Position numbers and translations under genes: made by a program. A stretch of 63,667 nt of DNA from Candidatus Sulfotelmatobacter sp. (GTDB lineage Bacteria; Acidobacteriota; Terriglobia; Terriglobales; Acidobacteriaceae): the NCBI GenBank assembly GCA_035701745.1, contig DASSRO010000088.1:1-63667 (forward strand), read 5' to 3'. The notes beneath the pieces were generated by a model that saw only the letters and a program-made list of their open reading frames with translations, made no database searches and was not told the DNA's origin. Positions 56,970 through 61,696 of the stretch are shown piece by piece; positions within the stretch are counted from its first letter, which is position 1, and the number at the start of each line of letters is the position of its first letter.

Positions 56970-59078
56970 ATGGCTGAACTACGCACGAAACCACAAGGTG
57001 TGATCGAGACCAGCGAAGCTCAGATCGCCGTGCATTGGAGGGAAGAGGAATATTACTATCCCTCGTCGAAGTTTATTGGACAGGCGAATTTGAGCGACCC
57101 GGATATTCTCAACCGATTCAGCGAGGACAAGTTCCCGGAATGTTTCCGGGAGTATGCGGATCTGTTGAGTTGGGACCAATATTGGCACACGACGCTCGAT
57201 ACCAATGATCCGCCGTTCTGGAAGTGGTTTGTCGGCGGCAAACTGAATGCGTCGTATAACTGCGTGGACCGCCATCTTGCCAAGTATGGAAACAAAGCGG
57301 CCTTGATTTTTGTTCCGGAGCCGGAGAGCGAGAAGCCGGTATCGGTGACGTATCGCGAACTCTACGTGCGGGTGAACGAGTTTGCAGCGCTGTTGCGCGA
57401 TTACTGCGGGCTGAAGGCTGGGGATCGCGTCACCATACATATGCCGATGGTTCCGGAGTTGCCGGTCACCATGCTGGCATGCGCGCGACTGGGGGTAATT
57501 CATTCGGTCGTGTTTGGCGGGTTCAGCGGAGAGGCTTGCGGATTGCGCGTCGCCGATTCCAGCAGCCATGTCCTGATTACGATGGACGGATATTACCGGA
57601 ACGGCAAGTTGCTCGATCACAAGGCGGGCGCCGACATTGCGCTCGATGTGGCCGGCAAAGAAGGCCATAAGGTTGAGAAGGTACTGGTATGGAGACGTCA
57701 TCCGGGCCAGAACGCTTCCGCTTCTCCATTCGTGAAAGGACGCGACGTTTTTGTCGATGAAATTCTGCCAAATTATTCGGGGGAGATTGTGGCTCCGCTG
57801 CCGATGGACGCGGAGGCGCCGCTGTTCCTGATGTACACCAGCGGCAGCACGGGCAAGCCCAAGGGATGCCAACACCGCACCGGCGGGTACTTGTCGTACG
57901 TTGCGGGAACTTCGAAGTACATTCAGGACATTCATCCCGAGGACGTTTACTGGTGCATGGCCGACATCGGGTGGATCACGGGACACTCTTATATCGTCTA
58001 TGGTCCGCTGGCACTGGCGGCGACCAGCGTGATCTATGAAGGAGTACCGACCTTCCCGGACGCGGGTCGCGTCTGGCGGATTGCAGAACGACTGGGGGTG
58101 AACATTTTCCACACGTCGCCGACTGCGATTCGTATGTTGCGCAAGGCCGGTCACGACGAACCCACCAAGTACAACTATCACTTCAAGCACATGACCACTG
58201 TGGGCGAGCCGATTGAACCCGAGGTCTGGCGCTGGTATTACGAGACCGTGGGCAAGAGGGAGGCGGTGATAGTCGATACGTGGTGGCAAACCGAGAACGG
58301 CGGTTTCTTATGCAGCACAAAGCCGGCAATCGATCCGATGAAGCCCGGAAGCGCGGGGCCGGGAATGCCGGGAATTTTTCCGGAGATCCGGGACGAAATG
58401 GGCGAGATCGTGGCTGCGGGGTCAGGAAAGGCGGGAAACATTTGTATTCGTAATCCATGGCCTGGGATCATGCAGACGATCTGGGGAGATCGCGAGCGTT
58501 TCGTGAACCAGTACTACCGCAAATATTGTAAAGATGTGAACAGCAAGAACTGGCGGGACTGGCCGTATTTCGCGGCCGATGGCGCGGTGGAGGCGGTGGA
58601 CGGATACTTCCGAATTCTCGGACGTGTGGACGACGTTATCAACGTGGCCGGACACCGGCTGGGGACGAAGGAAATTGAGTCTGCATGCCTGACGGTTTCG
58701 GAGGTGGCGGAGGCGGCGGTCGTGCCGGTGGTGGACGAGATCAAGGGCCGAGTGCCGGAAGTTTATATCGCGTTGCAACCGGGACTGCAGCCGAGCCAGG
58801 CGGTGATTGATAAAGTTAACAAGGCGATTGAAACCATGATTGGTAAGATCGCGCGGCCGCGAAATATCCATATCGTGCCGGACATGCCGAAGACGCGGTC
58901 GGGCAAACTCATGCGGCGCGTTCTGGCTTCCATCTCCAACCGGATGAATACCGGCGACATTACGACGCTGGCGAATCCCGACGTGGTGGAGAAGGTGCGG
59001 GAGTTGGTGCAGGGCAAAGAACCGGTGGTCGTCGCTGAAGTCGCGGACGATATCAAGCAGTTCGGGAAAGAGGAGTAG
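56970..59078 (+). CDS. acs: acetate--CoA ligase (AMP-forming acetyl-CoA synthetase), long form
   Basis: 702 aa. Motifs YTSGSTGKPKG, TVGEPI, WWQTENGG, and PKTRSGKLMRR with the conserved Lys. Confidence 0.9.
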   Translation: MAELRTKPQGVIETSEAQIAVHWREEEYYYPSSKFIGQANLSDPDILNRFSEDKFPECFREYADLLSWDQYWHTTLDTNDPPFWKWFVGGKLNASYNCVDRHLAKYGNKAALIFVPEPESEKPVSVTYRELYVRVNEFAALLRDYCGLKAGDRVTIHMPMVPELPVTMLACARLGVIHSVVFGGFSGEACGLRVADSSSHVLITMDGYYRNGKLLDHKAGADIALDVAGKEGHKVEKVLVWRRHPGQNASASPFVKGRDVFVDEILPNYSGEIVAPLPMDAEAPLFLMYTSGSTGKPKGCQHRTGGYLSYVAGTSKYIQDIHPEDVYWCMADIGWITGHSYIVYGPLALAATSVIYEGVPTFPDAGRVWRIAERLGVNIFHTSPTAIRMLRKAGHDEPTKYNYHFKHMTTVGEPIEPEVWRWYYETVGKREAVIVDTWWQTENGGFLCSTKPAIDPMKPGSAGPGMPGIFPEIRDEMGEIVAAGSGKAGNICIRNPWPGIMQTIWGDRERFVNQYYRKYCKDVNSKNWRDWPYFAADGAVEAVDGYFRILGRVDDVINVAGHRLGTKEIESACLTVSEVAEAAVVPVVDEIKGRVPEVYIALQPGLQPSQAVIDKVNKAIETMIGKIARPRNIHIVPDMPKTRSGKLMRRVLASISNRMNTGDITTLANPDVVEKVRELVQGKEPVVVAEVADDIKQFGKEE

Positions 59079-59123
59079 GCCAAAGAGCAGCGTTCTGAGC
59101 TACTGACGTGCGGTTCAATCACA

Positions 59124-59155
59124 AAGGCCAGTTCGATTTGGACTGGCTTTTGTTG
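59124..59155. terminator. bidirectional rho-independent terminator between acs and the MoaD-like gene
   Basis: Stem GCCAGT (59127-59132) / ACTGGC (59142-59147). It is followed on the plus strand by TTTTGTTG and preceded by AAA (a T-run on the minus strand). Confidence 0.55.
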
Positions 59156-59157
59156 CT

Positions 59158-59442
59158 TTATCGGCCGCCGCTCACGGCGGGCACAATTGAAATCTCAGAA
59201 CCTGCGGGAACGGGGCTTGTCAGCCCGCCGGTATAGCGAATGTTTTCGTCGCCGATGAAGATATTGATATGCTCGCGCACTTGTCCCTGCTCGGTGGTGA
59301 TGCGGTCGCGAACGCCGGGGTAGAGTGCCCAGAGCTGAGACAAAGCTTCGCCCACATTTGCGGGCGAAGATTCGATCGAGACTCGACTGCGGCCAGCGGT
59401 GAATTCTCGCAACGATCCGGGAATGTGAAAGGTCACCGGCAT
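59158..59442 (-). CDS. MoaD/ThiS family ubiquitin-fold protein ending in Gly-Gly-Arg
   Basis: 94 aa with a beta-grasp-like pattern (VTFHIPGSLREF......INIFIGDENIRY......GSEISIVPAVSGGR). It starts 4 nt after the kinase stop, with a GAGG Shine-Dalgarno inside the kinase 3' end. Confidence 0.65.
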   Translation of the reverse strand: MPVTFHIPGSLREFTAGRSRVSIESSPANVGEALSQLWALYPGVRDRITTEQGQVREHINIFIGDENIRYTGGLTSPVPAGSEISIVPAVSGGR

Positions 59443-59446
59443 GAGA

Positions 59447-61549
59447 TCACCTCTTCGACCGGCGTGTTTTGGACTTTGCCATAGGCGTCGCGCGACGGGA
59501 AGTGGTGGTCGCCGGCTTGGGCATGAGCGATTGCGGAGGGCCGTCCTCCAGCAGAGCGGCTCGCACGCAGACAACTGACGGGAGCCCTTCCAGTATTTTT
59601 TGCCAAGACTTGCCTTCGTCGCGCGAGCCAAACAGTTGTCCGCTTCTGGTTCCGAAGTAAATGCCCGCGGGGTCGAATGAGTCAGCCGCCATGGCATCCC
59701 GCAAGACGGTTTCGTAAGCGCGCTTTTGCGGCAGGCCGCGCATCAAGGGCTCCCAGGACTCGCCGGCGTTACGGGAGCGATAAATCCGCAGGCGTCCGTC
59801 GCAAGCGCAGCGGAATTCATCGGACTCGACCGGAGCGACATAAACGCAGTCGGGATTTCTGGGGTGCATCAACACGGGAAAGCCGAAATCGGAGGGCACG
59901 CCATTGGCGATGTCGGTCCAGCTTTCGGCGCCATCATCGGATCGATACAAGCCCCAATGATTTTGCAGGAAGAGACGGCCGGGGCGGGCGGGATGCATGG
60001 CGATTTTGTGTACGCATTGCCCGAACTCGGGAAATTTGTCGGGCATGAACATGGCGCGAATCCCGCGGTTCTGGGCGGTCCATGAAGCTCCGCCATCGAC
60101 GGTGCGGTACACGCCGCCGGCAGAGATTGCGACATACATGCGCCGCTTATCCGCCGGGTCGAGCACAACCGTGTGCAAAGCGAGGCCGCCGTTTCCAGGC
60201 ATCCAACGGGGACGATGCGGATGATCGAACAATCCGCGAACCATCGACCAGCTTTTACCGCCGTCGCCGGTTTCAAACAACGCAGCGGGTTCGACGCCGC
60301 AGTAAAGCACGTTTGGTTCCTCGTCTGGGCCGGGCGTGATCTGCCAGATATTTTTCAAGGAAAGTCCAGTGTCAGACGGAAAGCGAATGGGGGCTTGCTG
60401 CGGATTGGTCCAGCTCTTTCCAAAGTCGTCGCTGGAGCGAAGAATTGTGCCCCAATAGCTGGAGGTCGAAGCCCAAATCCGGCGCTGATCGCCGCGGCCG
60501 TCGAAGGCCATGGCATAAACACTCTGCCCGTGGAAATAAGGACCGCCAACTTCCCATCGGTTGCGCTGGGCGTTGGAGCGCAGGATGAAGGCTCCTTTGG
60601 TCGTTCCGACGAGCACGAGGAACGCGCCTTTTTTGACATGCACGTGTTGCACGCTGTGGAAGACGGTCGGGCGATCGGAAGCCGGGTCCGGGCCGGGTTC
60701 GGGGGCTGAAGTCATTGCTGCGGACTGAATTGCCTCCATCGCCGCCTGAACCTCGCCGGCGCGCTGGTACCGTTGCATCGGTTCCTTGGTCAGGCAGCGT
60801 TGAATGATGGCCCAGAGTCCGGGCGGTACGGGGGGGCCGAGGGTTGCGGGAGTCTCACGCATGATCGCGGAACTGATCTCGAAGCCGGTGCGGCCTGCAA
60901 ATGGCAAATGTCCAGAAACAGCTTCATAGAGGACAACGCCAAGTGCCCACAAATCGCTGCGATGGTCGGCGACCTCGCCACGCAAGATTTCCGGCGCCAT
61001 GTAGGGGAGGGTGCCGCTGACGCCGGAGGTCTCTCCTACCGTGGCGAAAGATCGGGTGGGGCCTTCCAGGATGCCGCCGCCAACCTGCTTGGCAAGACCG
61101 AAGTCGAGAACCTTGACCAATCCTTCATTCGTGATGACGATATTTGCGGTTTTGAGGTCGCGATGAATAATGCCGCGATCGTGTGCACGGGCGAGTGCAC
61201 TTGCGATCTGCACGCCGTAGCGGAGAACCGATTCCGGGGGCAGTCCTCCGGCCGCACACATTTCGGCCAGGGACTTGCCCTCGACCAACTCCATCACGAT
61301 ATAGAGTTCGCCCTCATTTTCGGCGACTTCGTAAATGGTGCAAATATTGGGATGGGCAAGGGCGGAAGACGCACGGGCTTCGTGGAGGAGGCGTTGGCTT
61401 GAAGAAGAATCCAGGCGGGTGTCTTTTTTTACGACTTTCAGGGCGACATCGCGGTGCAGCACTTCATCATAAGCGCGATAAACAACCCCCATGCCTCCTT
61501 CTCCGAGCTTAGCTATCACTCGGCAATGACCGAGTACCTGACCGATCAC
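59447..61549 (-). CDS. serine/threonine protein kinase fused to a BNR/Asp-box beta-propeller domain
   Basis: Hanks kinase motifs GEGGMGVVYRA, ALKV, HRDLKTANIV, DFGLAK and APE. The C-terminal ~400 aa carry six Asp-box-like repeats (SDDFGKSW, TGDGGKSW, TVDGGASW, SDDGAESW, SRNAGESW, SRDEGKSW). Confidence 0.85.
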   Translation of the reverse strand: MIGQVLGHCRVIAKLGEGGMGVVYRAYDEVLHRDVALKVVKKDTRLDSSSSQRLLHEARASSALAHPNICTIYEVAENEGELYIVMELVEGKSLAEMCAAGGLPPESVLRYGVQIASALARAHDRGIIHRDLKTANIVITNEGLVKVLDFGLAKQVGGGILEGPTRSFATVGETSGVSGTLPYMAPEILRGEVADHRSDLWALGVVLYEAVSGHLPFAGRTGFEISSAIMRETPATLGPPVPPGLWAIIQRCLTKEPMQRYQRAGEVQAAMEAIQSAAMTSAPEPGPDPASDRPTVFHSVQHVHVKKGAFLVLVGTTKGAFILRSNAQRNRWEVGGPYFHGQSVYAMAFDGRGDQRRIWASTSSYWGTILRSSDDFGKSWTNPQQAPIRFPSDTGLSLKNIWQITPGPDEEPNVLYCGVEPAALFETGDGGKSWSMVRGLFDHPHRPRWMPGNGGLALHTVVLDPADKRRMYVAISAGGVYRTVDGGASWTAQNRGIRAMFMPDKFPEFGQCVHKIAMHPARPGRLFLQNHWGLYRSDDGAESWTDIANGVPSDFGFPVLMHPRNPDCVYVAPVESDEFRCACDGRLRIYRSRNAGESWEPLMRGLPQKRAYETVLRDAMAADSFDPAGIYFGTRSGQLFGSRDEGKSWQKILEGLPSVVCVRAALLEDGPPQSLMPKPATTTSRRATPMAKSKTRRSKR

Positions 61550-61696
61550 AATGGCTCCTCAAAGGCCCAATGGTAGGCTGCGTTTCGGAAGTCCGTCAAT
61601 GAACGCCCGGACAGCGAAGCGAATGCTCGCTGGAAAAGCACCGTTTTCATATATAAATGTGAGGCATTGACTGCCCCCTTTCCCGGAGGTACAAGC

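Follow-up and report, generated by a model that had tools for sequence, protein, structure and literature searches.

What joins a protein kinase, an Asp-box beta-propeller and a small ubiquitin-like protein (Ubl) in a single pair of genes? The question is raised by contig DASSRO010000088.1 of the soil bacterium Candidatus Sulfotelmatobacter sp. (Acidobacteriota), analyzed here as one window of 63,667 nucleotides, in which a gene for a kinase-propeller fusion protein is followed by a gene for a 94-aa Ubl. Comparison of genomes showed that the predicted partnership lies between the propeller and the Ubl, which form an ancient, self-contained cassette and appear to be dedicated partners. The same comparison showed the kinase to be a late addition, made once in an acidobacterial clade and not part of the ancestral module. 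The two genes are:

59447-61549, minus strand: kinase-propeller open reading frame (ORF), 700 aa, GTG start
59158-59442, minus strand: Ubl ORF, a small beta-grasp protein of 94 aa

To describe the pairing, we used a neighborhood set of 80 loci, taken from species genomes that span more than ten phyla; 76 of these loci were assessable for adjacency. The Ubl gene adjoins the propeller gene in 69 of these 76 loci (91%), nearly always as the next gene downstream in the same orientation. Represented among the loci are Acidobacteriota, Gemmatimonadota, Actinomycetota, Planctomycetota, Chloroflexota, Dormibacterota, Binatota, Verrucomicrobiota and Eisenbacteria, together with a Bathyarchaeon. A sequence-only reading of the window had named neighborhood conservation as a check on the pairing, and the pairing is conserved far beyond this genome. 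Close homologues of the studied Ubl sit directly 3' of ~700-aa kinase-propeller genes in varied flanking contexts. All-against-all clustering of the flanking ORFs disclosed no third conserved gene, with no other family present in more than 5 of the 80 loci, and the immediate operonic neighbors of the cassette are heterogeneous. Two Gemmatimonadaceae loci (L041:7240-8574 and L049:7402-8553) have a MoeZ-like E1 gene directly after the Ubl gene, in the order propeller-Ubl-E1; these E1 proteins score 510-530 bits to the E1 encoded on contig C315 of the studied genome.

Homologues number in the thousands, and a propeller search of 1.84 billion representative proteins recovered 1,636 clusters at E <1e-30. 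The usual homologue is a stand-alone protein of about 360 aa with 40-50% identity, and among the best 150 clusters the only extra domains were the kinase and an N-terminal ThiS domain. The latter occurs in single-chain ThiS-propeller fusions (P0265, P0306) with an internal ...SGG. All other long ORFs suggestive of N-terminal domain fusions were Arg-rich over-calls in high-GC DNA, and two C-terminal propeller-Ubl "fusions" (L060, L083) look like frameshifted long-read sequence from metagenome-assembled genomes (MAGs) and were not counted. The searchable literature holds no description of the propeller-Ubl pair or of the function of 3B7F, a homologue of the propeller with a solved structure, in agreement with the sequence-only reading, which could not assign the pairing to a known pathway. 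The pair is very widespread without an assigned function, although a crystal structure has been available since 2007.

The sequence-only reading had treated kinase, propeller and Ubl as one module; the propeller-Ubl unit is conserved as such, whereas the kinase is a late, single-origin and patchy addition. A maximum-likelihood tree of the propeller domains groups all kinase-fused genes, a frameshifted copy (L029) among them, in one clade with support of 100/99, which shows a single origin of the fusion. Unfused acidobacterial cassettes surround this clade in the tree. Of 301 genomes sampled evenly across the phylum, 111 have the propeller family, and only the studied genome has the fused form. 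Within the genus, 17 of 81 genomes carry the fused form, at 72-89% identity, and about 66 of the 81 carry a distant unfused paralogue (47% identity); most carriers of the fused form have both. Since only these 17 of the 81 genomes carry the fused form and the unfused paralogue is near-universal in the genus, the fused cassette is an accessory, patchily inherited second copy beside a core paralogue.

The ratio of non-synonymous to synonymous substitution rates (dN/dS) for the kinase, propeller and Ubl against eight orthologues is 0.04-0.13, with dS saturated, and the comparison shows all three parts to be under apparently strong purifying selection. Across the fused clade the distance from the kinase-propeller stop to the Ubl start is -4 to +15 nt, and both the propeller's conserved His/Cys/Gln set and the Gly-Gly of the Ubl stay invariant.

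Three further cassettes deserve description. A MAG titled Gemmataceae (Planctomycetota; L028) holds a fused cassette of the acidobacterial clade, which could reflect horizontal transfer or mis-binning. In L029 (5106-7203), a frameshift splits the kinase-propeller gene into a 227-aa kinase fragment and a 495-aa remainder; the assembly is possibly a long-read one, and the split gene may be a pseudogene or a sequencing error. The studied genome itself has a second, core cassette (C29:5425-7515) with a 394-aa stand-alone propeller that is 47% identical to the fused one and groups in the propeller tree with verrucomicrobial, planctomycete and Binatia copies. A signal-peptide-like DUF4440 gene is inserted between its propeller and Ubl genes, and its Ubl is a divergent protein of 101 aa that ends GAIAGG and is undetected by Pfam ThiS.

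What could such a fused protein do? Its 700 residues divide as follows, the structural evidence coming in part from AlphaFold2 (AF2) models and their predicted local distance difference test scores (pLDDT):

60710..61549, minus strand: Hanks-type Ser/Thr kinase domain, residues 1-280 (Pfam, motifs, Foldseek)
60638..60709, minus strand: unconserved linker, residues about 281-304, ~25 aa (blank conservation profile, no transmembrane segment)
59552..60637, minus strand: seven-bladed Asp-box beta-propeller of the 3B7F family, residues about 305-666 (homology, AF2, Foldseek)
59450..59551, minus strand: low-complexity basic Ser/Thr-rich tail, residues 667-700 (unconserved, pLDDT <50)
59450-59455, minus strand: Shine-Dalgarno sequence AAGAGG of the Ubl gene, in the last codons of the tail

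The Pfam Pkinase model (PF00069) matches residues 11-262 (E 1e-53, 182.7 bits), and the G-loop, VAxK Lys38, HRDLK, catalytic Asn, DFG and APE are identical in all or >=80% of 14 fused orthologues. Foldseek aligned the AF2 kinase model with PknB, PknA and Stk1 at template modeling (TM) scores of 0.85-0.90, with about 0.88 for PknB and PknA. Motif set, PF00069 score and PknB/PknA-like fold together identify a Hanks-type Ser/Thr kinase, the class that the sequence-only reading had recognized, and the domain looks like a working enzyme, predicted to be catalytically competent, PknB-like and soluble. The model of PASTA kinases PknB/Stk1 (NF033483) gave 268.7 bits against a cut-off of 450 and covered the kinase part alone. 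The 700-aa protein has no transmembrane or hydrophobic segment, its maximum 19-residue Kyte-Doolittle hydropathy being 1.26, and therefore the whole protein is expected in the cytoplasm. Within this flexible linker, pLDDT falls below 50 at residues 281-285. The activation loop holds a Thr conserved among the fused orthologues, and neither the Pfam matches nor the AF2 model of the 700-aa protein contain another sensor domain. Sixteen further Hanks-type kinases, mostly of 800-1100 aa, are encoded in the same genome (17 contigs). In L020 the gene just upstream of the fused one encodes another kinase, of 843 aa.

The propeller carries six Asp-box-like motifs, at residues 373, 427, 483, 537, 592 and 642, with a spacing of ~54 residues. 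The sequence-only reading had listed six S-x-D-x-G-x-x-W repeats in a six-bladed propeller. Six such motifs are present, but only two match exactly; S is replaced by T in two others, G by A in one and D by N in one. The blade count did not hold. A phmmer search of PDB matched 3B7F at E 1.6e-80 across domain residues 14-373, with 37% identity, and the propeller family profile matched it at E 2e-125. Foldseek superimposed the two at TM 0.91 (root-mean-square deviation 2.7), and the AF2 propeller has pLDDT >90 and about 28 strands. 3B7F is described as an Asp-box propeller with seven blades (PMC2716378). Because this homologue is seven-bladed and the AF2 strand count agrees, the modeled propeller is assigned seven blades, the first of which lacks an Asp-box. 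Full-length homology, the seven blades and the conserved HP.R..W, GG..LH, C.H, QNH and FGFP motifs place it in the 3B7F type, for which no dedicated Pfam family was found.

An alignment of 75 propeller sequences, fused copies included, revealed invariant non-structural residues H443, H459, C512, H514, Q529 and H531, which suggests that this set forms a putative catalytic or metal-binding center. Of the columns that never vary across the 75 sequences, R617 alone is an Arg, and a sialidase Arg triad is absent. Sialidase/GH33 or BNR glycosidase identity was judged improbable on this ground, on a sub-threshold BNR_2 (sialidase) match (14.8 bits against a cut-off of 31.4) and on seven rather than six predicted blades. 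A Ycf48/HCF136 identity was discarded, as PSII_BNR scored 21.4 bits against 27 over 74 residues and NF010237 scored 28.8 against 326. The whole-protein Sortilin/Vps10 score of 48.9 exceeds its cut-off of 33, yet only model positions 24-115 of 446 are covered; this candidate was rejected because the match consists of Asp-box repeats alone and the fold is seven-bladed, not ten-bladed.

The second gene encodes a CysO/SAMP1-like beta-grasp protein that spans 59158..59442 on the minus strand and ends VSGG-R (ThiS, SAMP1 and AF2 evidence). The codons of its end are:

59164-59169, minus strand: Gly-Gly codons
59161-59163, minus strand: extra Arg codon CGA
59158-59160, minus strand: stop codon TAA

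ThiS (PF02597) matched at E 6e-10, with 39.9 bits against a cut-off of 22.5. This score above the gathering threshold and the beta-grasp fold place the protein in the ThiS/MoaD superfamily, as had been proposed from the sequence. The NCBIfam equivalog model for SAMP1 (NF041918) gave 61.2 bits against 60, a marginal score in a bacterial host, and CysO (PDB 3DWG_C) matched at E 1.6e-14. The AF2 model (pLDDT 93.4) has the beta-grasp order of elements; its Foldseek matches include CysO (4N6E_B, 3DWG_C) and SAMP1 (3PO0) at TM 0.80-0.88, and MoaD and Urm1 were also matched.

Gly-Gly is invariant in 68 of 68 cassette Ubls, as is Arg56, and retention of the motif among homologues, another check named by the sequence-only reading, is thereby complete. 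With the beta-grasp model and the conserved pairing, every refuting condition of that reading is answered in a way that favors a real module. In 51 of 67 cassette Ubl genes the stop directly follows the Gly-Gly, while the studied copy ends GG-Arg. Its 3' codons, GGC GGC CGA TAA, are one base away from GGC GGC TGA, and the extra Arg is best read as a likely derived stop-codon substitution (TGA to CGA). The earlier statement that VSGGR must be trimmed to give a free Gly-Gly stands, with the addition that the Arg is derived and that the family normally ends in GG. Extensions beyond the Gly-Gly, varying in length and sequence, occur in 8 of 15 kinase-fused copies and in 8 of 52 elsewhere (Fisher p 0.005), and among the 120 nearest homologues in the database about 40% have one. 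The genome's two other CysO-like carriers are likewise extended after the Gly-Gly, ending SIAGGAA (C315:1846-2124) and SIAGGSM (C55:14084-14350).

In two kinase-fused cassettes the stop after Gly-Gly is lost and the Ubl reads through into the next gene, which is PPOX-like in L026 (7215-7886) and encodes an ABC transporter ATPase in L027 (7252-8352). These appear to be accidental stop losses and were rejected as meaningful fusions. Because extensions are frequent and variable, read-throughs occur and sister carriers are tailed, the pattern points to routine GG-specific trimming in these organisms, a testable processing step.

Within the fused clade, Ser85 of the Ubl is present in 14 of 14 copies and Thr71 in 12 of 14, compared with 7 of 54 and 6 of 54 in unfused cassettes. 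These near-fixed residues are weak evidence for an explanation in which the chemistry of the unfused cassette is kept and the kinase acts as an on/off switch, phosphorylating the Ubl or the propeller upon signals from elsewhere. For a kinase that acts on a Ubl, eukaryotic PINK1, with ubiquitin as its target, is the nearest precedent. Full conservation of the active-site-like residues and the Gly-Gly in the fused clade agrees with such a switch, as does the conserved Thr in the activation loop. However, the clade-specific Ser and Thr may merely mirror the narrow diversity of the clade, the kinase lacks any other sensor domain that could take up a signal, and the C-terminal domain of bacterial Hanks kinases is normally the input. 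We regard this explanation as unlikely.

The assembly measures 4.6 Mb and is 94% complete and 5% contaminated. No ThiF, JAB or MoaE gene is located on the contig of the cassette, so the sequence-only reading was correct that no E1, JAMM or cofactor gene is nearby; the genome search that it had named nevertheless found an E1 and a JAMM in trans. Whether or not a genome holds the fused cassette, it has a JAMM (38 of 38 genomes), and JAMM presence therefore does not tell the two groups apart. Contig C315 encodes a MoeZ-type E1 (ThiF plus rhodanese) adjoining a second CysO-like gene, C161 a second ThiF protein, and C32 the genome's single Prok-JAB (JAMM) peptidase, which adjoins a gene for a CysM-like pyridoxal phosphate (PLP) enzyme. 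On C55 a gene for a ThrC-like PLP enzyme adjoins the third carrier, and C297 holds a separate short ThiS. MoaE (PF02391) had no match in this 94%-complete genome, while 11 of 14 control genomes matched, and therefore the Ubl is not expected to be a molybdopterin synthase subunit.

These findings bear on the ordinary annotation, by which the Ubl is MoaD/ThiS, the propeller is a BNR glycosyl hydrolase, and adjacency and fusion carry no functional meaning. Database labels agree with it: the Joint Genome Institute (JGI) calls Ubl homologues "molybdopterin converting factor small subunit", and 3B7F was deposited as "glycosyl hydrolase, BNR repeat". The missing MoaE, the separate ThiS on C297 and the cytoplasmic location of the propeller protein speak against this annotation, as do the BNR_2 and Ycf48 scores below their Pfam cut-offs and the invariant His/Cys/Gln set without a sialidase Arg triad. 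It also leaves the adjacency in 91% of assessable loci across phyla, with some pairs fused, without a reason. A MoaD or glycosidase annotation is contradicted by the data, and the reading as a whole is highly improbable.

The explanation that we put forward, and to which we give an even chance on genomic grounds, is that the Ubl may be an E1-activated carrier with the propeller as its dedicated partner, and that the kinase may couple the complex to phospho-signaling. A trans-acting JAMM-type peptidase (C32) would trim the Ubl to a free Gly-Gly, and the trans-encoded E1-rhodanese (C315) would then adenylate and probably thiocarboxylate it. The loaded tail would be delivered to the propeller as dedicated acceptor or enzyme partner, by analogy with MoaD-MoaE, ThiS-ThiG and CysO-CysM. 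In the fused copy, the propeller-Ubl complex could be the kinase's input or targeting module in the cytoplasm, which would tie Ser/Thr phosphorylation to how far the carrier is loaded. Coupling may also run the other way, with the kinase switching the propeller-Ubl reaction by phosphorylation.

Several observations weigh against this explanation. The E1 and the JAMM were assigned by their presence in the genome alone, and each adjoins another carrier system. No partner phosphatase, FHA protein or conserved kinase-substrate gene is linked to the cassette. The N-terminal Ubl-propeller fusions bury the Gly-Gly unless the chain is cleaved, and the enrichment of post-GG extensions in the kinase-fused clade may mean that a free C-terminal carboxylate matters less there. 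Finally, no result constrains the direction of information flow between the kinase and the propeller-Ubl pair.

The same E1 and JAMM proteins would also suit protein tagging, in which the Ubl would be conjugated with an E1 only, in the manner of SAMP or Urm1, the propeller would be the substrate receptor, and the kinase would make or read phospho-marks. Such a module would parallel, in bacteria, the way in which receptors of the propeller type recognize phosphodegrons, and propellers are common protein-binding scaffolds. The Ubl scores above the SAMP1 cut-off, SAMP1 and Urm1 are among its structural matches, and its Gly-Gly is invariant. On the other hand, the cassette has no linked gene of E2 or E3 type and no JAMM or E1 dedicated to it, and the invariant His/Cys/Gln set seems to resemble a catalytic or metal site more than a peptide-binding surface. 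By sequence, the Ubl is closest to sulfur carriers such as CysO, and most cassettes lack a kinase. Taken together, tagging appears quite unlikely.

Under the carrier-partner explanation, the kinase fusion implies that the propeller-Ubl complex is worth coupling to phospho-signaling for the cell, and the activity of the fused kinase would be a convenient readout of Ubl binding or loading. The known partner types of Ubl and sulfur carriers are few: MoaE, ThiG, CysM, TtuA, BexX and E1-only conjugation. A more far-reaching and rather doubtful form of the proposal is that the 3B7F-type propeller is an unrecognized class of partner enzyme or receptor for a dedicated Ubl carrier, with the complex wired to a Hanks kinase in this acidobacterial clade. 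Should this hold, bacteria would offer a first case of Ubl or sulfur-carrier loading read out as Ser/Thr phosphorylation, or of a kinase that modifies its cognate Ubl in a PINK1-like manner.

The organization of the locus adds to this description. The minus-strand junction reads AAG AGG TGA tctc ATG, with the kinase-propeller stop, 4 nt and the Ubl start. The Shine-Dalgarno GAGG lies within the final codons of the kinase-propeller gene, 7 nt before the ATG. This sequence agrees with the ORF coordinates, the gap, the 94-aa gene and the internal Shine-Dalgarno described by the sequence-only reading, and by this arrangement the Ubl gene is predicted to be translationally coupled to the gene upstream. 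Two signals flank the pair:

61570..61599, minus strand: sigma-70-like promoter candidate TTGACG-18-TACCAT, 20 nt upstream of the kinase start
59121..59153, between the convergent acs and Ubl genes: palindrome with a 15-bp stem, terminator-like site on the plus strand

The promoter candidate is a consensus match only (1 found against 0.8 expected in shuffles) and weak on its own; the palindrome is likely a bidirectional terminator that closes the two-gene operon. Because a promoter candidate lies upstream and the palindrome separates the Ubl gene from acs, the pair looks like a self-contained operon, which is flanked by a divergent gene for an FtsX-type ABC permease and by the convergent acetyl-CoA synthetase gene (acs).

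Orthologues of this acs gene were found in seven same-genus genomes at 79-93% identity; therefore the contig belongs to the genus, and its origin as a MAG contaminant was ruled out. Synteny downstream of acs is not kept in the same-genus genomes, and no empty site is definable among them. Gene content 3' of the acs orthologue (window 56970-59078; relatives L105-L111) differs in each of the seven. The region 3' of acs is a local hotspot of gene-content variation, which here holds the accessory cassette.

How, then, does the cassette compare with known systems? Its Ubl is nearest to CysO of the CysO-CysM-Mec+-MoeZ pathway (Mycobacterium tuberculosis, 3DWG) and of CysO-BexX (4N6E), at the E value given above and at TM 0.85-0.88, and shares its length and its ...P-A-V-[SA]-G-G end. 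The genome likewise has a MoeZ-type E1-rhodanese and a JAMM adjoining a CysM-like PLP enzyme. In contrast to the CysO systems, the conserved partner is a beta-propeller, not a PLP or thiazole-synthase-like enzyme, and the E1 and JAMM are unlinked: the CysM-like/JAMM pair (C32) and the MoeZ with the second CysO-like gene (C315) are all off the contig of the cassette. The CysO-like gene beside MoeZ is the better candidate for the canonical route in this genome.

For the propeller, the counterpart is 3B7F itself (Reut_B4987/YP_299179), a structural-genomics "putative glycosyl hydrolase with BNR repeats" from Cupriavidus (Ralstonia) JMP134. The two share the QNH, HP.R..W and LH motifs and seven Asp-box blades. 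They differ in that 3B7F stands alone without a kinase and, as aligned, has H-x-x-H-C in place of the C-x-H motif. The glycosidase label of 3B7F is unsupported.

Haloferax SAMP1/UbaA and eukaryotic Urm1/Uba4, which combine sulfur carriage with protein modification, resemble the Ubl in the beta-grasp fold, the Gly-Gly end and the marginal SAMP1 match, and activation by an E1-rhodanese as in these systems is plausible by analogy. Unlike them, the Ubl is locked to a propeller gene that is absent from SAMP and Urm1 systems, and it comes from a bacterial host whose genome has no MoaE.

Among Hanks kinases, PknD (NHL propeller), PkwA (WD40 repeats) and the PASTA-type PknB share with the fused protein a PknB-like catalytic domain with all motifs, and its C-terminal propeller takes the place normally held by a sensor or targeting domain. 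The studied protein differs from these kinases in lacking a transmembrane segment and PASTA domains, and in having an Asp-box propeller with a dedicated Ubl partner. The final comparison is with mycobacterial MoaX, which carries MoaD and MoaE in one chain and is cleaved after Gly-Gly. The Ubl-propeller fusions P0265 and P0306 mirror it: one gene encodes both carrier and partner, here a propeller, and the GG is internal.

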